In this document: one piece after another, positions 7,181 through 26,528 of the stretch
Layout: every line of letters starts with the position of its first letter
Position numbering within the stretch: the stretch's first letter is position 1
NCBI RefSeq assembly: GCF_003945235.1
Contig: NZ_RSDW01000001.1
Span: 1,950,001-1,982,000 of the forward strand
Direction of reading: 5' to 3'
Source: Edaphobacter aggregans
Lineage (GTDB): Bacteria > Acidobacteriota > Terriglobia > Terriglobales > Acidobacteriaceae
DNA: 32,000 bases
Notes under the pieces: model-generated
The model's input: the letters and a program-made list of their open reading frames with translations, nothing else
Databases searched by the model: none
What the model was told of the DNA's origin: nothing
Translations under genes and position numbers: made by a program

Positions 7181-8080
7181 ATGCAAATCCCATTCCTAAG
7201 AACCCTAGGCCTGATATTCCTTCTTGCAAACTTTGTGCCACGCATCGATGCACAAATCAGGCCGCAATGGACCACCCCGCTCTCGCCGTTTCAGCTCGCA
7301 GATAACCTCTACTACGTCGGCAGCAAAGATCTAGCGGCGTACCTGGTAACGACGCCCGCCGGAAACATCTTGATCAACGCCAACCTGCCCTCCTCCCCTT
7401 CACAGATCAGAGCCAGCGTAGAACAGCTCGGCTTCCGCTGGAAGGACACGAAAATCCTCCTCATCGGGCAGGCCCATTACGACCACGCAGGCGGCAGCGC
7501 CGAAGTCCTGCGCGAAACCCACGCTCAATTGATGGTCATGGAGTACGACGCAGACGTTGTTCAAACAGGAGGACTCACCGACTTCCTCCACGCCTCCGGT
7601 TCAGTACCAACCTATCCACCTGCGCACGTCGACCGCGTCCTGCATGACGGCGACACCGTAACCCTCGGCGGCACCACTCTCACCGCTCACCGCACCGCCG
7701 GTCATACCCGCGGCTGCACAACCTGGACGATGCACGTGCATCTCCCCAAAGAACCTGCCGGCACGCTTCGTAATGCAGTCATCGTAGGCGGCTACACCCT
7801 ATGGTCAGATTTCCAGCTCGTCGACACGCCAACTCACCCAGCCTCCTACCCAGGCATTGCCGACGACTTCCGCCACACCTTCGCCATCTATAAAGCACTC
7901 CCCGTTGACGTCTTTTTAGCCGATCACGGCGAGCATTTTGGCCTTCTGGAAAAGTTCGCACGCATGCCCCGCGAAGGCGATGCCGTCTGGGTCGACCCCC
8001 AAGGCTACCGTGACGTCATAGAAGAGGGGAAGCACGCGTTTGAAAAGCAATTGGCGGAACAACAGGCCAGCAAAGAATAG
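7181..8080 (+). CDS. Subclass B3 metallo-beta-lactamase-fold hydrolase with a Gln116 variant metal site (QxHxDH); Sec signal peptide
   Basis: The signal is MQIPFLRTLGLIFLLANFVPRIDAQ. B3-type blocks present are FQLADNLYYVGSKDLAAYLVTTPAGNILIN, LLIGQAHYDHAGG (Q97-A-H-Y-D-H, nt 7469-7486), TAGHTRGCTTW and FLADHGEHF. Confidence 0.85.
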   Translation: MQIPFLRTLGLIFLLANFVPRIDAQIRPQWTTPLSPFQLADNLYYVGSKDLAAYLVTTPAGNILINANLPSSPSQIRASVEQLGFRWKDTKILLIGQAHYDHAGGSAEVLRETHAQLMVMEYDADVVQTGGLTDFLHASGSVPTYPPAHVDRVLHDGDTVTLGGTTLTAHRTAGHTRGCTTWTMHVHLPKEPAGTLRNAVIVGGYTLWSDFQLVDTPTHPASYPGIADDFRHTFAIYKALPVDVFLADHGEHFGLLEKFARMPREGDAVWVDPQGYRDVIEEGKHAFEKQLAEQQASKE

Positions 8081-8137
8081 GCCGGACAATCAATCCCCAA
8101 ACCAGCGGTAATCTCATCGCGTCGCTCATCGGCACCC

Positions 8138-8779
8138 CTAGGCCTCCGTCCCACCGACTACCTGTGGCTCAACCACAGACACATCATCTGGCATTGTCCA
8201 CACCCGTATCACCTCGGGTAGCGTCAACACAACAAATACCACCCCCGAAATCGCCACCGCGCTAATCAGCAATCCCAATCGCACCGGCCCGATTGGGGCA
8301 CGGAAACACACCACCCAGTACACCGCGGCCAACACCGGCAATCCTCGCCTCAACATCCGAAACGCTCGCCCCTCGGCATCCCGCTGCATGGCCGCATCGC
8401 GTTCATCCACATGACTGCTCTGCTCCCTCAGCTCTCGTCCCCAACGCCACTTAACCCGGTCCTGCTGCATCTCGGTCAACTCGACGAAAGCCTTGCCGTA
8501 CTGCATTCGAGCCCGATCCTCAAGACTCACAGAATTGCGACGGACCAGACGCGGCAAAAACCTTCCCATCCCAATGGCCGCCAGGCAAAGGACGAGAGAC
8601 GCCGCTCCATAGAGCCCGCTGCCATGCTCGCGCCAAGGATAGAGATCGAAGATTGCCGTCAGGAAAAACATCCCTGGCGTGAAGAGGCAAGCTACCAAAT
8701 TCCAGCGCCGCGTCCGCCGCGTAAGAATCGCTTTCGTTCCCATCATCTGAAGTCGTCGTAATAAAGTGCCTACCCCCAT
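8138..8779 (-). CDS. Paralog P4 of a four-member membrane-protein array (213 aa, about 4 TM), function unknown
   Basis: ATG at 8779-8777 shares its A with the P3 stop (TGATG); the track start at 8782 is GTG. P4 shares with P1-P3 a basic patch before TM1 (LTRRTRRW), the loop motif SLEDRARMQYG..LTEMQQ...DERDAAMQRDAEGRAFRMLRR and the tail LPEVIRVWTMPDDV. Confidence 0.8.
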   Translation of the reverse strand: MGVGTLLRRLQMMGTKAILTRRTRRWNLVACLFTPGMFFLTAIFDLYPWREHGSGLYGAASLVLCLAAIGMGRFLPRLVRRNSVSLEDRARMQYGKAFVELTEMQQDRVKWRWGRELREQSSHVDERDAAMQRDAEGRAFRMLRRGLPVLAAVYWVVCFRAPIGPVRLGLLISAVAISGVVFVVLTLPEVIRVWTMPDDVSVVEPQVVGGTEA

Positions 8780-9528
8780 CACACCTCCCTCTCAATCACC
8801 CGCGGCTCCCCAACCTCATCCGGCAGCGTCCACATCCGCACCAACGTCGGCAACAAAAACAGCGCAGTCGTCATCCATAGAAGAACTAGAGGGCTGTCCA
8901 CCAACAGTCCTCGCCACCTCAGCCACCATCCAAGCGCAACCTTTGGCGCCATCAGATACACCGCCCAGCCCGCCACCGTCACGACCACTGCCGACCTTCG
9001 CAGCAAACGGAAGGCCGTACGTTCCGCGCGTTCGTGCTGTGCAGCTTGCCACTCATCAGGGTGAAACGGTTGCGAGAACAGTTCCGCTCGATACCGCAAC
9101 AGCATCTCCCTGCGTTCCTGTGGCGTCAGCTTGTCGTAAGAGGTCCCATATTCAAGCACCGAACGCTCTTCCACGCTCGAACCAGCCATCGCCATCATCC
9201 ACTTCGAGAAAAAGAGCATCATCCCCATGTTGAACATCCACGTCATAGCGGTCACGAAGATGGCCAGCCGATGGGGCAGCCTATGCACACTGAGAGGGTC
9301 ATCAGACTCAACGTATGCCCATCCCCAGAGCACAACCGCAAAGACCAGGACAGTCAATACCGCCAGGGCTCGCCGTACACTCTGCCTATCTGCCCAACGG
9401 TTATACCGCCCAAACTGTCGTTGGACAGCAGGGTCCGGGACAACGATCGGAAGATGGTCAGAAAGCCACTGGGCAAATGGGTGCAGTCCGTATCCGTGTT
9501 GGCCTCGATCCATTGCTGCGTCGTCCAT
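8779..9528 (-). CDS. Paralog P3 of the membrane-protein array (249 aa), function unknown
   Basis: Track ORF 8779..9702 trimmed to ATG 9528-9526, which shares its A with the P2 stop (plus strand CATCA = TGATG). Motifs are SVEERSVLEYGTSYDKLTPQERR...DEWQAAQHERAERTAFRLLRR and the tail LPTLVRMWTLPDEVGEPRVIEREV. Confidence 0.8.
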   Translation of the reverse strand: MDDAAMDRGQHGYGLHPFAQWLSDHLPIVVPDPAVQRQFGRYNRWADRQSVRRALAVLTVLVFAVVLWGWAYVESDDPLSVHRLPHRLAIFVTAMTWMFNMGMMLFFSKWMMAMAGSSVEERSVLEYGTSYDKLTPQERREMLLRYRAELFSQPFHPDEWQAAQHERAERTAFRLLRRSAVVVTVAGWAVYLMAPKVALGWWLRWRGLLVDSPLVLLWMTTALFLLPTLVRMWTLPDEVGEPRVIEREV

Positions 9529-10382
9529 CACGCCTCCCGCTCCACCAACCCCAACTCCCCACTCGCTGCCCCCGGATCCTCGACCGACCAAAGCACGATC
9601 GCCTGCCGCAGCGTGATCATCAGCGTTACAAGCGTCCACACCCCGCTCACAACCGTCGACCGGCGTATCGTCCATCCTTTCATCACTGCCGTCGACACCC
9701 AAATTGCCGTCAACACCAATACCCAGTTCATCACGCGCTGCACCTTAGCGCGAACTAAGTTCTCCTCCTGACGAATCCGTTCATCATCCAGCAAAACCCG
9801 TTCGCCCCCATGCATCCACTTTCCCCGTGGATTCGCCCGGCGCAATTCCTCCACCTCGGCGCGCTGCTCCTCGTTCAACCTCCTGAACCTAACCCCGAAC
9901 TCATACCAGGCAAAACCGTCCAGCCCAACCGCAAATCCCATCCGAGCCAAACGCCGCTGTTGTCTCCAGTTCAGTCCCTCACCCTTTTGGATCACCTGCG
10001 CCAACCATCCACTGTCCGTCAGTGCCGCCATCCCTACCCAACTCAGAACGCTCGCGAAAGCCATCAAAAACGTCGCATAGAGAGCAGTATTAACAGGACT
10101 AGCCTTCCCATGCGATTGCCACATTTGCGCTCCTATACTGAATGCCCACAGAGCTGTAAAAGCCACTTTCAGTCCCGTCTCAGCCTCTTTGATCGTGGAC
10201 CAGACACGCGAGACAAACCACACCAGCCACAACGACTCCAGCGCACCATAAGCCCACCGCGGATGGACCCACACAACCACCAGAAACGCTGTATAGGTCG
10301 CCACCACTGCAATCCGCCGTCTCCATCTAGGCCGCATATCAATTCCAAACCAGCGTAGCTTCTTCTCATCCAGCGACAGCAT
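9528..10382 (-). CDS. Paralog P2 of the membrane-protein array (284 aa, about 6 TM, the most divergent), function unknown
   Basis: ATG at 10382 lies 3 nt after the P1 stop (TGAGGGATG). It has the basic patch RPRWRRRIAVV, the loop LNEEQRAEVEELRR...DDERIRQEENLVRAKVQRVMNWV and the tail LRQAIVLWSVEDPGAASGELGLVEREA. Confidence 0.75.
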   Translation of the reverse strand: MLSLDEKKLRWFGIDMRPRWRRRIAVVATYTAFLVVVWVHPRWAYGALESLWLVWFVSRVWSTIKEAETGLKVAFTALWAFSIGAQMWQSHGKASPVNTALYATFLMAFASVLSWVGMAALTDSGWLAQVIQKGEGLNWRQQRRLARMGFAVGLDGFAWYEFGVRFRRLNEEQRAEVEELRRANPRGKWMHGGERVLLDDERIRQEENLVRAKVQRVMNWVLVLTAIWVSTAVMKGWTIRRSTVVSGVWTLVTLMITLRQAIVLWSVEDPGAASGELGLVEREA

Positions 10383-10385
10383 CCC

Positions 10386-11078
10386 TCACGCCTCCCGTTC
10401 CATCGTCACCGCCCGCGGCTCCCCAACCTCATCCGGCTCCGTCCACATCCGCACCATCTGCGGCAGCGCCAGCACACCCATCACCACCCACGAAACCACC
10501 ACGGCGCTCACCACAAGCTCACTTCGAGCACTCCCACACGGACGGCTGAAGCACACCCCCCAATACCCCAGCACGAAGAGCACCAGCGCAGGCCGCAGTA
10601 TGCGGAACGCCACCCACGCAGCCTTCTGCTGCAACGCCATCTCCCGCTCATCCCGCGCCGCACGACCGATCACCCGTTCCCGAAGTAAGCGCTGATAAAG
10701 CAGCCCTCTCTCAGGCTCGCTCAACTGCTCAAACTCAACTCCATGCTCGGCAACGGCCCGATCTTCAAGACTGGTCTCCGCCATCGAGCGCCGCGAGATG
10801 TAAAGCGCCCATGCTCCCAGCGCCATCATGATCAGTGTGAACGTAAAAGCAAGCTCACCGTCCGTACCCCCATCCCGCCACACGTGAGCGACATGCATAG
10901 CCAGCCAGAACCAGACGCCCAGTAGTCCCACCCACAACACAATTGCCAGCCGCCGCGATCTCCGTCTTCGCTCCCAGCGCATAAACCCCAGCATCGTGCG
11001 CCATTGCCATGCACTCAGCGGCGACGGCCGATACAATCTGCGCCTGCGTGCAACCCTGTCCTCTCGCGGAGCCATCAT
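10386..11078 (-). CDS. Paralog P1 of the membrane-protein array (230 aa, about 4 TM), function unknown
   Basis: ATG at 11078-11076 shares its A with the XRE gene stop (TGATG). Motifs are WERRRRSRRLAIVLW, SLEDRAVAEHGVEFEQLSEPERG...DEREMALQQKAAWVAFRILR and the tail LPQMVRMWTEPDEVGEPRAVTMEREA. Confidence 0.8.
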   Translation of the reverse strand: MMAPREDRVARRRRLYRPSPLSAWQWRTMLGFMRWERRRRSRRLAIVLWVGLLGVWFWLAMHVAHVWRDGGTDGELAFTFTLIMMALGAWALYISRRSMAETSLEDRAVAEHGVEFEQLSEPERGLLYQRLLRERVIGRAARDEREMALQQKAAWVAFRILRPALVLFVLGYWGVCFSRPCGSARSELVVSAVVVSWVVMGVLALPQMVRMWTEPDEVGEPRAVTMEREA

Positions 11079-11323
11079 CACGCCCCCCGCCGCTGCATCT
11101 CGTACACCTGCTCACTCAAAGGACGAAACGGCTCCGGCGAAAACACAGCCTCCACCGGCAGCTTGAAGAACCGGCTGATCTTGAAAGCCAGCTCCAGCGA
11201 AGGCGTATAGTCCCCCCGCTCCAGAAACCCAATCGTCTGAGGATTCACCCCCACCTCCCGAGCCAATTCCTGCCGGCTCAACGACCGTTCCGAGCGCAGC
11301 ACAGCAATGCGGTTATAGAGCAT
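11078..11323 (-). CDS. Small XRE-family (Cro/CI-type HTH) transcriptional regulator, 81 aa
   Basis: The product from ATG 11323 is MLYNRIAVLRSERSLSRQELAREVGVNPQTIGFLERGDYTPSLELAFKISRFFKLPVEAVF. This is the classic short HTH_3 pattern (xRLxxLRxExxxSQxxLA...QTIxxxExGxxxPSLxLAxKIAxxF). The 14 upstream track codons start at TTG and overlap the predicted promoter. Confidence 0.9.
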   Translation of the reverse strand: MLYNRIAVLRSERSLSRQELAREVGVNPQTIGFLERGDYTPSLELAFKISRFFKLPVEAVFSPEPFRPLSEQVYEMQRRGA

Positions 11324-11340
11324 ATCGATTCCCCACCGAA

Positions 11341-11420
11341 ACAATACATTGCGTATAAGCAACAAGCAAGCCTGAAAACGCCACCCAAAAATAAAACCTG
11401 AAAAAGTGCCGATTTTTCAG
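11341..11420 (-). promoter_or_regulatory. Candidate promoter and operator for the XRE-led operon
   Basis: Read on the minus strand: TTGCTT (11369-11364), a 17-nt spacer, then TATTGT (11346-11341), about 18 nt before the ATG. Directly upstream are a CTGAAAA half-site (11372-11378) and the perfect inverted repeat CTGAAAAA-N7-TTTTTCAG (11398-11420). Confidence 0.35.
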
Positions 11421-11540: not shown

Positions 11541-11568
11541 CAGAAAAGCCCCAGCCGAAGCCGGGGCT
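11541..11568 (-). terminator. Intrinsic terminator after erpA
   Basis: On the minus strand GCCCCGGC-TTCG-GCTGGGGC (8 bp including one G-U, UUCG loop; 11567-11548) is followed by TTTT. It lies 24 nt after the erpA stop. Confidence 0.6.
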
Positions 11569-11590: not shown

Positions 11591-11977
11591 CTATACGCTG
11601 AAAGAAGACCCACACCCGCAGGTGCTCTTCACAGCGGCGTTCTCGAACTTGAAGCCCGCAGCCTCAAGCGTCTCAACATAATCCACCGTGCAGTTCTGCA
11701 GATACATCGCCGAGGTGGCGTCCACAAACACCTTTAGATCTTCGAACTTGTAGACCTTATCCATCATGCCGCTCTGGTTCTCAAACGACATCGAGTACTG
11801 GAAACCCGAGCATCCGCCACCAACCACGCCAATCCGCAACCCAGCCGGAACCGGATCCTGAGTCGCCATAATCTCCTTGACCTTCGCAATCGCGTTAGGG
11901 GTCAGCGTCACAGGCTGCGTCGAAGCGGGAACTCCAGTGACGACTTCAGCGGTAGGGGTAACGGTGGCAGTGGACAT
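11591..11977 (-). CDS. erpA: A-type iron-sulfur cluster insertion/carrier protein (HesB/IscA/ErpA family), 128 aa
   Basis: Key blocks are LRIGVVGGGCSGFQYSMSF and a C-terminal KSTCGCGSSFSV, which carry the three conserved Cys. AAGGAG lies 9 nt upstream of the ATG. Confidence 0.9.
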   Translation of the reverse strand: MSTATVTPTAEVVTGVPASTQPVTLTPNAIAKVKEIMATQDPVPAGLRIGVVGGGCSGFQYSMSFENQSGMMDKVYKFEDLKVFVDATSAMYLQNCTVDYVETLEAAGFKFENAAVKSTCGCGSSFSV

Positions 11978-12121
11978 CAGACGAATCTCCTTATAAATCT
12001 ACTTATTCAGTGTAGTCCCCTACCGCCCGAGCGGCAAGGTCACATATATCTAGATGCGTACCAGCTACATCGGATGCACCCAAACCTGATACTATTCCCC
12101 CACTCGCCTCATCTAAAGCCC

Positions 12122-12295
12122 ATGAAACCGCTGCTCTTTCTCTCGAATGCCTTCATCAACACCTTTGGCATCACACAGCCATCTCCAAAGGCAGCCAATC
12201 GAGCCGCGTGGTTCATCGCCGTCCTTTTGCTTGCCGTCATCGTGACCGTCGTCACCGTCGGGGTCTTCGTCGTTCATTCCTTATACCGTCACTAA
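12122..12295 (+). CDS. Possible small single-pass membrane protein (57 aa)
   Basis: The internal ATG of track ORF 12074..12295 gives MKPLLFLSNAFINTFGITQPSPKAANRAAWFIAVLLLAVIVTVVTVGVFVVHSLYRH. Support is limited to the open frame, one TM segment and host-like codon usage. Confidence 0.35.
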   Translation: MKPLLFLSNAFINTFGITQPSPKAANRAAWFIAVLLLAVIVTVVTVGVFVVHSLYRH

Positions 12296-12469: not shown

Positions 12470-12745
12470 ATGATGAGCGCTCTACCCATGATGCTCATTG
12501 TCTGGGCGGTGGTGGCGGCCTGCTTTCTAGCGCTGCTTGCCTACCGCGGGCAACTGACACGCTATGAAGAAGATCAGCTCTTCCTCAGCGACTCGGAATC
12601 CAACGAGCAAAAAGAACAGAGTGAGATCGTCCGCAAAGTAAATAAAATTCAGCCCTTCATCCGCGTCCTGGGCGTCGCCGCAGCAGTTATGACCGCTGGT
12701 ATCGTTGGCATCTTCACCTATGACGCGTGGCAACACTTGAAATAA
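12470..12745 (+). CDS. Small two-TM membrane protein (91 aa), function unknown
   Basis: GGAGG (12456-12460) lies 9 nt before the ATG. The product has an N-terminal TM (LPMMLIVWAVVAACFLALLAY), an acidic linker and a C-terminal TM (VLGVAAAVMTAGIVGIF). A terminator-like hairpin follows. Confidence 0.55.
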   Translation: MMSALPMMLIVWAVVAACFLALLAYRGQLTRYEEDQLFLSDSESNEQKEQSEIVRKVNKIQPFIRVLGVAAAVMTAGIVGIFTYDAWQHLK

Positions 12746-24921: not shown

Positions 24922-26121
24922 CTAAGCCCCGATCGTCACCAACTCCGGTTCGCTCACCGTCCGCTTCAACTGCCCACAAGCAGCATAGATATCCCGCCCC
25001 CGAGGCCGCCGGATATAAGTCGGCATCCCACCGTCAATCAACATCTTCTGAAACACCGCCACACTCTCTGGATCAGGCTGCGTATAAGCAATCCCCGGCC
25101 CAGGATTCCACACAATCAGATTCACCTTCGCGTGCATGCCCTTCAACAGAGCCAGCACCTCGCGAGCATGCTCCGGCTGATCGTTCACCCCACCCAGCAG
25201 CACATACTCAAACGTCACCCAATCCCGCTTGCCCATCGGAATCGTCCTCACCGCATCCAGCAACTGAGCAATATTCCACTTTCGCGTAATCGGCATGATC
25301 TGCTCGCGCACAACATCGTTCGAAGCATTCAAACTCAACGCCAGCTTTGGCCTCAACGTCTCCTGCGCGAACCGCCGGATCGCCGGCTCAATCCCGCTCG
25401 TCGAAACCGTCATCCGCGACTCCGGAATCCCGATCCCCTCCACCAGCAACCGCACCGAAGCAATAAACGCCTCGTAATTCAAAAACGGCTCGCCCATCCC
25501 CATAAACACCAGGTTGATGCGATCCTTCCCAATCTTCACCCCATGCCGATTCAGCACCGCCGCCACCTGCCCGGCGATCTCGCCCGCCGTAAGGTTCCGC
25601 TTAATCCCCAGCTTCGCCGTCAGGCAAAACTGACAGTTCACCGCACACCCAACTTGGCTCGAAATACAAATCGTCGCCCGCCGATACCCCGCCGCAGCCA
25701 GCGCCCCCCAATTCCGCTTATCAACCTTATCGACCGGGCGAGACCCCTCATTCCCCTCACGCCCCTCCAACACTTCTTCCTCAAGAGCGGCCTCAGTCCC
25801 ATCCCCCCGCTCGCCGCCATCGCCATCCGGCATCCATACGGTCTCCACGGTCTCGCCATCGGCCATCCGCATCAGATAGCGCTCGGTGCCATCCACCGAC
25901 ACCGCCGCCTGCACAATCTCCGGCATCCCCACCACAGCACCCTCGTCCGTCAACCGAGCCCGCAACTCCGCCGGCAGCACCGTCATCTCCTCCACCGAAG
26001 ACACCCGCTGCTTATAAAGAGCCTCCCAAACCTGCCGCGCCCGATAAAGCTTCTGCCCCAGCGCACCCATGCGCTCCATCAACTCCGGCAGACTCATCCC
26101 AAACAACGCAGCACGTTCCAT
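24922..26121 (-). CDS. rlmN: Radical-SAM 23S rRNA/tRNA adenine-C2 methyltransferase RlmN, 400 aa
   Basis: The start is ATG 26121 (MERAALFGMSLPELMERMG..), 2 nt after the cupin stop. Key blocks are SSQVGCAVNCQFCLT (CxxxCxxC), FMGMGEPFLNY, VSTSGI, NLIVWNP and ACGQL. Confidence 0.95.
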   Translation of the reverse strand: MERAALFGMSLPELMERMGALGQKLYRARQVWEALYKQRVSSVEEMTVLPAELRARLTDEGAVVGMPEIVQAAVSVDGTERYLMRMADGETVETVWMPDGDGGERGDGTEAALEEEVLEGREGNEGSRPVDKVDKRNWGALAAAGYRRATICISSQVGCAVNCQFCLTAKLGIKRNLTAGEIAGQVAAVLNRHGVKIGKDRINLVFMGMGEPFLNYEAFIASVRLLVEGIGIPESRMTVSTSGIEPAIRRFAQETLRPKLALSLNASNDVVREQIMPITRKWNIAQLLDAVRTIPMGKRDWVTFEYVLLGGVNDQPEHAREVLALLKGMHAKVNLIVWNPGPGIAYTQPDPESVAVFQKMLIDGGMPTYIRRPRGRDIYAACGQLKRTVSEPELVTIGA

Positions 26122-26123
26122 AC

Positions 26124-26528
26124 TTAAAGAATAAATGCACGATACTGATCGTCCGTAACCTGTTCCATCCATTCAACAACTTTGCCGTCCAGCTTCTCCT
26201 GAATGGCAATATGCGTCATGGCGGTAGTTGGTGTAGCCCCATGCCAGTGCTTCTCCCCCGGCGAGAACCAAACCACATCTCCCGGCCGGATCTCTTCAAT
26301 CGATCCGCCATCCCGCTGTGCCCAGCCCAAGCCTCCCGTAACGATCAAAGTCTGCCCCAACGGATGCGTATGCCACGCCGTCCGAGCGCCAGGCTCAAAG
26401 GTAACGCTCGCACCCTGTACGAACGCCGGATCTGGCGCCTGAAAAAGTGGATCGATCCGTACCGTCCCCGTGAACCAGTCGGCGGAACCTTTGACAGAGG
26501 CTTGCGAACCGCAGCGTTTAATCTCCAT
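26124..26528 (-). CDS. Cupin-domain protein (cupin_2 type), 134 aa
   Basis: The metal-site-like pattern is [24 protein letters not shown]...[19 protein letters not shown] 26528 has GAGGA 6 nt upstream, whereas ATG 26534 abuts the GAGGA. The gene is tightly coupled to rlmN. Confidence 0.8.

Follow-up and report, generated by a model that had tools for sequence, protein, structure and literature searches.

In the cytolysin system of Enterococcus faecalis the repressor CylR2 silences a promoter, and induction by the extracellular peptide CylLS'' requires CylR1, a membrane protein of 94 amino acids (aa) whose gene adjoins that of CylR2, without any phosphorelay; how CylR1 signals to CylR2 is still unresolved (PMC3709268; bioRxiv 10.1101/2024.08.13.607848), and the prevalence of such systems was described in a 2024 preprint as unexplored (bioRxiv 10.1101/2024.08.13.607848). 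In Bacillus subtilis the operon of the autorepressor SdpR also encodes the membrane protein SdpI, which sequesters SdpR by means of a motif that faces the cytoplasm (PMC2910880). BcrR consists of an XRE-type helix-turn-helix (HTH) domain fused to a four-transmembrane (TM) intramembrane sensor with tiny extracellular loops, and controls an ATP-binding cassette (ABC) exporter (PMC3968067; PMC10269533). The locus considered here lies in a 32,000-nucleotide (nt) stretch of the genome of Edaphobacter aggregans (contig NZ_RSDW01000001.1, positions 1,950,001 to 1,982,000; hereafter the window) and consists of a gene for an XRE/Cro-type regulator followed by four genes for polytopic membrane proteins, P1 to P4. 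The comparisons presented below suggest that it may be a phosphorylation-independent membrane-to-DNA signalling module of the CylR1/CylR2 or SdpR/SdpI kind, in which an autorepressor is controlled by its membrane partners; this reading is given about an even chance of being correct.

The regulator and its closest analogues

The regulator is homologous to CylR2. It matches the Pfam family HTH_3 (PF01381) with 47.8 bits against a cut-off of 23, and phmmer searches of the PDB recover CylR2 itself (1utx/2xiu; E 4.5e-10), with query residues 1-65 aligned to chain residues 1-65, as well as 9k3w of the PbsX family (E 3.9e-13). The protein is thereby divided into a single domain that can be aligned with CylR2 and an extra tail of 16 residues that extends past the length of CylR2. 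The tail, with the consensus EPFxPLSxxxY (EPFxPLSxQVY), is conserved in orthologues of four phyla and is recognisable in the examined XRE proteins that neighbour the membrane-protein family in Acidobacteriaceae, Streptomyces, Deinococcus, Sphingomonas, Blastomonas, Tsukamurella, Mycolicibacterium and Rhodococcus. CylR2 lacks it, as do the XRE sequences of Priestia, Haloferax, B. anthracis and Erythrobacter that were compared. Contact between the XRE protein and its partners is proposed because the tail co-occurs with the membrane family, and this co-occurrence is the main argument, albeit an indirect one, that such contact may be physical. On the Rhodococcus plasmid pYLC1 (L029:1-1731) an ABC ATPase and permease lie upstream of an XRE gene that has no family partner, and the product of this gene carries a partial tail.

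The likeness to the cytolysin system extends from the repressor to the arrangement of the genes and the design of the membrane proteins. In both systems the gene of a small single-domain XRE protein lies next to that of a small polytopic membrane protein and is transcribed together with it, the extracellular loops of the membrane partners are negligible, and there is no kinase or phosphorelay. CylR1, as encoded on an E. faecalis plasmid, contains a KKDER motif followed by a TM helix, which resembles the DER helix preceding TM3 in the present proteins; CylR1 itself falls in no Pfam family. The two systems also differ in several respects. CylR1 has 94 residues and about three TM helices, whereas P1-P4 have 213-284 residues and four or more, and unlike CylR1 they possess a cytoplasmic loop of 58-95 residues and a WTEPD tail and occur as four partners. 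The regulator described here has a conserved C-terminal tail and CylR2 has none. Lanthipeptide genes were not noticed near the operon, and a divergent target promoter is lacking here. The locus may thus work like CylR1/CylR2, an analogy that carries no claim of membership in the CylR1 family. The first-pass annotation, which had been made from the sequence alone, overlooked this closest characterised analogue, with which the regulator aligns over its whole core.

Three further systems share parts of this organisation. SdpR/SdpI likewise has the repressor gene first and a polytopic membrane protein next, the membrane protein itself being the operon's output. The regulator family of SdpR is different from XRE, and P1-P4 have no Pfam match to the SdpI family at E values up to 1; the likeness is purely one of logic. 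BcrR resembles the present system in combining an XRE HTH with a four-TM module, and a homologous pair in Rhodococcus lies directly upstream of an ABC-2 exporter. In BcrR, however, HTH and TM segments form one polypeptide, whereas here they are encoded by separate open reading frames (ORFs) in different reading frames at every locus seen, and no HTH-TM fusion was found among the family matches. DUF2178 (PF09946)/DUF6442 proteins are paired with COG1476-type XRE regulators in Firmicutes and archaea and share the DER-then-TM motif; the present family differs in being two to three times larger and in its second TM hairpin, long loop and WTEPD tail. To our knowledge, no function has been assigned to DUF2178.

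Small membrane proteins encoded beside related XRE genes in B. anthracis, Priestia and Haloferax share with CylR1 a (K/D)DER helix followed by a TM segment. On a B. anthracis plasmid (L013:2785-3183) a CylR2-like XRE gene and a small DER-motif membrane gene are found beside mersacidin-family lantibiotic genes, and on Haloferax volcanii pHV4 (L012:2724-3189) a corresponding pair is found beside a halocin C8-like gene, neighbours that echo the bacteriocin context of CylR1/CylR2. The Priestia protein reaches 22.3 bits on DUF2178, just under the cut-off of 22.8. Neither this DUF2178-like protein nor the Haloferax XRE neighbour was accepted as a homologue of P1-P4, the hhalign comparisons being non-significant (E 0.12 and 0.017, respectively).

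The membrane-protein family and its linkage to the regulator

P1-P4 belong to a large, unannotated membrane-protein family that has no curated family entry. Pfam returns for P1 only a sub-threshold match to DUF2178 over the DER/TM3 region (16.5 bits, E 0.009, against a gathering cut-off of 22.8) and nothing for P2, P3 or P4, while NCBIfam returns matches at chance level only. Matches to DUF2178 at E below 0.1 are found in 4 of 17 close relatives and in none of 37 distant ones; besides P1, three of its close homologues match sub-threshold over the DER/TM3 region. The first-pass annotation had likened the locus to pairs of XRE regulators with DUF membrane proteins; the sub-threshold DUF2178 matches of P1 and of the Priestia protein show this link to be real, but it is weak and no protein of the window reaches the cut-off. 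Its statement that P1-P4 show no transporter, enzyme or known signalling motif is borne out by Pfam and NCBIfam, in which no such domain, and no holin or toxin domain, was detected. A Foldseek search with a model of P1 revealed no structural relative in PDB or BFVD (best E 1.2 and 0.65; template modelling score, TM-score, <=0.38), and across Pfam, NCBIfam and Foldseek there is no confident match to a family of established function. P1-P4 are also without a match in PADLOC and PHROGs, and their assignment to a known defence system or prophage was rejected on this basis. The homologues in databases are named 'hypothetical protein' or not at all, save for a few rows with a generic and seemingly spurious label, and their precomputed Pfam domains comprise nothing beyond a few PF09946 marks. 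Literature searches on DUF2178, 9K3W and COG1476 with a membrane protein gave nothing relevant and no mention of DUF2178. Neither the membrane family nor its pairing with XRE is described in the literature and curated libraries that were searched.

The four proteins had been presented in the first-pass annotation as related paralogs, and this relationship can be traced at two levels. Pairwise BLASTP connects P1 with P4 (E 9e-31), P1 with P3 (E 5e-21) and P3 with P4 (E 2e-17), and these three are clear paralogs. P2 has no significant pairwise BLASTP match to the others (best E 0.12) and is a diverged member of the family, evident through profiles only. Against a profile built from 37 distant members of the family, none of them from the window, P2 gives an hhalign probability of 98.8% (E 5e-17, 117 columns); by hmmsearch against profiles built without P2 it scores E 1e-20 and 4e-22; and BLASTP matches it to a type-B member from a related locus at E 3.5e-18. 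With profile A4, which includes P1, P3 and P4 as rows, hmmsearch E values are 7e-73 for P1, 2e-20 for P2, 3e-51 for P3 and 7e-62 for P4; with profile A3, which contains no window sequence, they are 3e-17, 8e-22, 7e-13 and 1e-20, respectively. Comparison with related loci reveals three old subtypes, namely A (P1, P3 and P4), C (P2) and B, which does not occur in the window. Because BLASTP links B to C (E 1e-14 to 1e-22) and A to B (E values down to 6e-9), homology across the three subtypes is transitive. The placement of P2 in the old subfamily C and of the other three in A does not accord with the simple four-fold expansion of one gene that had been supposed.

All four proteins share an Arg-rich patch before TM1, a first TM pair, a charged loop of 58-95 residues, a DER...A..A(F/Y)R.LR helix, a second TM pair and an acidic tail LP...(I/V)(R)(M/L)W(T/S)..D; in type A the loop contains SLEDRA..YG..F..L.E.Q. 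Every motif quoted in the first-pass annotation (the Arg patch, S(L/V)E(D/E)R...YG, D(E)R...A..AFR.LR and the tail LP..(V/I)R(V/M)WT.PD(D/E)V) was found again. Its estimate of two to four N-terminal TM helices fits P1, P3 and P4, for which a hydropathy scan gives 2 + 2 helices, but in P2 the scan gives one N-terminal TM segment fewer than the upper bound; by eye, the N-terminal hydrophobic segments of P2 appear to number about four. Lysine and arginine cluster at the N-terminus and within the central loop, and by the positive-inside rule the N-terminus, loop and tail are therefore predicted to be cytoplasmic, which agrees with the location of loop and tail given earlier. The periplasmic loops are just 5-14 residues long.

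The invariant or near-invariant columns (R42, R43, G113, D143, P206 and W212 in P1 numbering) are all cytoplasmic, and the conserved residues adjoin the membrane: the Arg pair precedes TM1, the DER helix leads into TM3 and LPQ..R.WTEPD extends TM4. A confident AlphaFold2 model of P1, built from a 68-sequence alignment (predicted local distance difference test score, pLDDT, 85.9; predicted template modelling score, pTM, 0.73), consists of two TM hairpins and a helical cytoplasmic loop, with the DER helix continuous with TM3 and with TM4 running on into the LPQ..RMWT segment. The cytoplasmic position of the conserved columns, together with the very short periplasmic loops, is more readily explained by an interaction surface in the cytoplasm than by a channel or transporter.

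The family is widespread and its linkage to XRE is conserved. In a search space of 1.84 billion proteins, the type-A profile recovers 218 representatives when E values up to 1e-3 are admitted, of which 44 have an E value no higher than 1e-30. Of 11 distinct Acidobacteriaceae loci with a visible 5' end, drawn from genomes and soil metagenomes, 10 have an XRE gene directly upstream of their single family gene or array. The arrays take the forms A-B-C (L001, L006), A-A-C (L021/L022), A-C-B (L020, L025), B-A-C-B (L003) and A-C-A-A (this window and a metagenome contig 99% identical to it), and a single B occurs in Terracidiphilus (L017). Arrays of one to four genes drawn from subtypes A, B and C are thus the norm in Acidobacteriaceae, and the four-gene array of the window appears to be one state of a dynamic family, not a unique expansion. 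The locus is chromosomal and syntenic beside erpA across different Acidobacteriaceae genera; L001, for example, shows synteny with the window at the erpA end. The type-B gene in fourth position of the L003 array (7312-8092) appears as two overlapping ORFs (173 and 132 aa); an assembly error, a frameshift or a pseudogene could account for this.

Outside this phylum, the nearest XRE orthologues (58-64% identical) occur in Streptomyces, Tsukamurella, Sphingomonas and Blastomonas, and each is followed by an overlapping gene (by 4 nt or similarly) for a four-TM protein of 150-180 aa. These partners carry the Arg patch, an LDE(R/W/Y)E..(E/Q)R..A helix and a P..IL.W(T/S)..D tail. The Sphingomonas and Streptomyces partners match the family by hhalign (96%, E 1.6e-9, and 89%, E 2e-6), the Tsukamurella and Sphingomonas partners score 40-42 bits by hmmsearch, and the Blastomonas partner matches weakly. 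In Deinococcus a gap follows the XRE gene, and then a short two-TM ORF with the tail LP..ILAWTEQD, whose match to the family profile is weak. On the plasmid concerned (Deinococcus sp. QL22, L009:2646-2987) the annotation downstream of the XRE orthologue consists of a hypothetical protein of 51 aa; the longer frame encodes a shortened, two-TM form of the family that ends in LPTAILAWTEQDI, and the conserved core of the family may accordingly be just the TM3-TM4 hairpin and its flanking motifs.

By profile search, numerous homologues were also recovered from chromosomes of Tsukamurella, Rhodococcus, Mycolicibacterium, Mycobacterium and Prescottella, those of the Mycobacteriales being on multi-megabase contigs; the two of these loci that were checked (Mycolicibacterium and Rhodococcus) have an overlapping XRE gene upstream. 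On the Rhodococcus chromosome (L033:3579-5656) genes for a DrrA-like ATPase and an ABC-2 permease lie directly downstream of the XRE-membrane pair, and this exporter is a plausible regulated output of the module; the ABC transporters of L033 and of the partner-less plasmid locus L029 are both possible outputs. No neighbour other than XRE is conserved across phyla. Conservation of the XRE linkage in other genomes, on which the first-pass annotation had staked its proposal, and the presence of XRE with one to four paralogs in Acidobacteriaceae both emerge from this survey. The array is no peculiarity of this genome, since arrays are usual in Acidobacteriaceae; an XRE gene with a single partner is common in Mycobacteriales, which offer hundreds of such pairs, and in Streptomyces and Sphingomonas.

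Operon layout, promoter and candidate operators

An ORF check of the window found the five head-to-tail minus-strand ORFs at their places and with the lengths given in the first-pass annotation (Table 1). The genes had been said to follow one another without gaps, which holds for XRE/P1, P2/P3 and P3/P4, where stop and start overlap by one base, but not for P1/P2, where 3 nt separate them. At every junction a GGGAGG or GGAGG Shine-Dalgarno-like sequence lies within the final codons of the upstream gene, and because of this embedded ribosome-binding sequence the conservation of the C-terminal '...EREA' may be partly due to constraint at the nucleotide level. P1 is identical in sequence to the NCBI protein EDE15_1640 and P3 to the database representative P0020 (249 aa). 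The stem-loop and T-run upstream, which are conserved in L001, form the 5' boundary of the XRE operon, and downstream a gene for a metallo-beta-lactamase-fold (MBL-fold) protein is convergent with P4; the operon thus stands as a unit of its own. Within the window it has no mobile-element genes at its flanks.

Table 1. Features of the XRE-P1-P2-P3-P4 locus, in window coordinates
Feature	Position	Strand	Description
XRE/Cro-type HTH gene	11078-11323	minus	81 aa from ATG; CylR2-like core (residues 1-65) and conserved C-terminal tail SPEPFRPLSEQVY
P1	10386-11078	minus	230 aa; type A; ATG overlaps XRE stop (TGATG)
P2	9528-10382	minus	284 aa; type C; longer N-terminal hydrophobic region
P3	8779-9528	minus	249 aa; type A; N-terminal cytoplasmic extension; ATG overlaps P2 stop (TGATG)
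P4	8138-8779	minus	213 aa; type A; ATG overlaps P3 stop (TGATG); final gene of the operon
Sigma-70-like promoter	11341-11369	minus	-35 TTGCTT (11364-11369), 17-nt spacer, -10 TATTGT (11341-11346)
Candidate operator	11349-11362		14-bp near-palindrome TTGCTTATACGCAA within the -35/-10 spacer
Upstream palindrome	11398-11420		CTGAAAAA-N7-TTTTTCAG; exact 8+8 inverted repeat, roughly 30-55 bp upstream of -35
Stem-loop and T-run	11547-11568	minus	inverted repeat I2, then TTTTCTG; 3' of the erpA-like gene
IscA/ErpA-like (erpA-like) gene	11591-11977		Pfam Fe-S_biosyn; upstream of the XRE operon

The promoter was identified by its conservation across loci. In an alignment of upstream regions the pattern TTGnnT-17-TATT(G/A)T is kept at the same place in four independent loci; a scan with consensus promoter elements found no promoter, the -35 element matching the consensus at just 3 of 6 positions, and terminator-like sites in that scan occurred at chance rate. 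The transcription start is predicted to lie near 11333-11335. The promoter spacer is unusually conserved between loci. The near-palindrome within it is one mismatch from the perfect palindrome TTGCGTATACGCAA, which is present at the homologous place in L001 (5636-5649), and a two-mismatch version of TTGCGTATACGCAA is present in L003. An operator between -35 and -10 is a classical arrangement for a repressor. The first-pass annotation had pointed to the palindrome further upstream, which is indeed an exact inverted repeat and whose core AAA-N3-4-GCCA-N1-2-TTTT is conserved in L001, L003 and L006/L007; it is possibly a second operator or an UP-like element. On the sequence evidence the near-palindrome in the spacer is the better operator candidate. 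A further site, CTGCGTATAAGCAA at 25078-25091, differs from TTGCGTATACGCAA by two mismatches and was rejected as an extra operator, being located inside the minus-strand ORF 24922-26172 and within chance expectation for the window.

Several observations concern the surroundings of the operon. In L003 (3250-4890), from an Acidobacteriaceae metagenome-assembled genome (MAG), the promoter and palindrome block lies upstream of an extra gene that precedes XRE and appears to have been inserted between the two; its 463-aa product has CarboxypepD_reg / transthyretin-like repeats and is probably secreted. Beside the erpA-like gene of the window are two small plus-strand genes for predicted membrane proteins of 73 and 91 aa (12074-12295 and 12470-12745), which have no Pfam match and keep the same order in the syntenic MAG locus L001 (4287-4989). 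GC skew is strongly negative nearly throughout the window (1-32000; about -0.2 to -0.4 per kb) and AT skew is positive in many places; the cumulative skew falls monotonically over all 32 kb. This skew gives rise to long spurious plus-strand ORFs opposite P1-P4, such as 9034-9771; over the operon it is consistent with G/T-rich minus-strand codons, yet it persists across plus-strand genes.

Proposed mechanism and alternative explanations

If the locus is a signalling module of the kind proposed, a dimer of the XRE protein would bind the near-palindrome between -35 and -10 of its own promoter, and possibly also the upstream palindrome, and would thereby repress the five-gene operon and possibly other targets in the genome. 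The membrane proteins, which are almost unexposed to the periplasm, would sense an intramembrane or envelope-borne cue and would then bind the XRE protein, probably via its tail EPFxPLSxQVY; with the repressor held at the membrane, repression would be relieved. The diverged paralogs (A and C, and elsewhere B) would either assemble into a single hetero-oligomeric receptor or work in parallel, each as the receptor of its own cue. A more specific version, in which paralogs of types A, B and C form an obligate hetero-oligomeric intramembrane receptor that captures the EPFxPLS tail of a CylR2-type repressor, is tentative and considered rather unlikely. The homology to CylR2, together with the control of CylR2 by CylR1 without a phosphorelay, supports the interpretation of a repressor under membrane control, and the conserved linkage, the co-occurrence of the tail and the conserved palindrome in the spacer count for a signalling module as well. 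Among the functions suggested in the first-pass annotation, an envelope sensor or membrane anti-repressor of the XRE protein fits best, whereas defence or exclusion is unsupported, with PADLOC and PHROGs empty and the locus chromosomal and syntenic by erpA.

Several points weigh against this interpretation. Contact between the XRE protein and P1-P4 is something that we infer. The gene order is reversed relative to the cytolysin system, in which cylR1 is upstream of cylR2 whereas here the partners are downstream of XRE. Compared with the family profiles A4 and A3, CylR1 gives hhalign E values of 0.18 and 0.09 with probability below 1%, and homology of P1-P4 to CylR1 is not claimed, these values being non-significant and the shared DER motif short. 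The arms of the upstream palindrome are low-complexity A/T tracts. One of the 11 Acidobacteriaceae loci (L016) is an orphan type-B gene without an adjoining XRE gene. Finally, no separate target promoter or divergent gene is visible in the window; because the membrane proteins are the only evident output, an explanation in which they are plainly regulated effectors fits equally well on this point.

In that explanation the XRE protein is an ordinary autoregulated repressor, and P1-P4 are its regulated effectors, structural or protective proteins of the inner membrane that give no feedback to it and act, for instance, in envelope stress, membrane remodelling or bacteriocin immunity. The lack of any other visible target in the window agrees with it, as does the self-contained operon, with its terminator upstream and convergent gene downstream. 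Immunity is plausible for the related pairs that adjoin lantibiotic or halocin genes in B. anthracis and Haloferax, and a copy number of one to four is often seen for immunity genes. However, no bacteriocin genes were noticed beside the Acidobacteriaceae loci that were compared, although no systematic search of the window for such genes was made. The conserved residues, moreover, are cytoplasmic and beside the membrane, neither within nor outside it, and the cross-phylum co-occurrence of the XRE tail and the tight translational coupling suggest more than the relation of a regulator to its target. Regulated effectors are accordingly regarded as a serious possibility, though a somewhat unlikely one. 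It appears improbable that the locus is a toxin-antitoxin-like, abortive-infection or exclusion module with P1-P4 as potentially lethal pore- or holin-like effectors silenced by an XRE repressor or antitoxin. Type II toxin-antitoxin systems such as HipBA typically have the XRE gene in first place and overlapping genes, the XRE protein of this locus weakly matches the profiles of HipB, HigA, RmrA and CapH (through the HTH alone), and some homologous pairs are plasmid-borne in a search that covered a plasmid collection only. Yet P1-P4 have neither a PADLOC or PHROGs match nor a holin or toxin domain, Foldseek found no viral structural neighbour in BFVD, no mobile-element genes flank the operon in the window, and the locus is chromosomal, in synteny with erpA across Acidobacteriaceae genera and on multi-megabase contigs in Mycobacteriales. 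Least probable is that P1-P4 are accessory subunits or assembly factors of another membrane machine and that XRE is a mere neighbouring regulator. In its favour, P1-P4 are small polytopic helical proteins without domains, and Foldseek gives a weak likeness to small respiratory-supercomplex subunits (E above 1, TM-score <=0.33), but these matches are non-significant and XRE is the only neighbour that is conserved across phyla.

Since the regulatory logic of a membrane-controlled repressor has precedents, the system is not categorically new; it is set apart by the unannotated membrane family, the family-specific repressor tail and the tandem arrays of three ancient subtypes in Acidobacteriaceae. 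A CylR2-like repressor is here paired with an uncharacterised, Pfam-less membrane family in several phyla, and the pairing extends to genera that are amenable to genetics (Mycolicibacterium, Rhodococcus and Streptomyces). Concrete candidate interaction surfaces are provided by the DER helix and WTEPD tail of the membrane proteins and by the C-terminal tail of the regulator, and the number of subunits varies naturally from one to four. If a hetero-oligomeric receptor that captures the repressor tail does exist, it would represent a widespread form of signalling without kinase or protease in Acidobacteriota, Mycobacteriales, Streptomyces and Sphingomonadales, of which CylR1/CylR2 would be a minimal and highly diverged example. 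The sequestration model, if true, would constitute a general route of membrane-to-DNA signalling without a phosphorelay; should it be wrong, the locus still reveals a large unannotated family of membrane proteins with a defined regulator.

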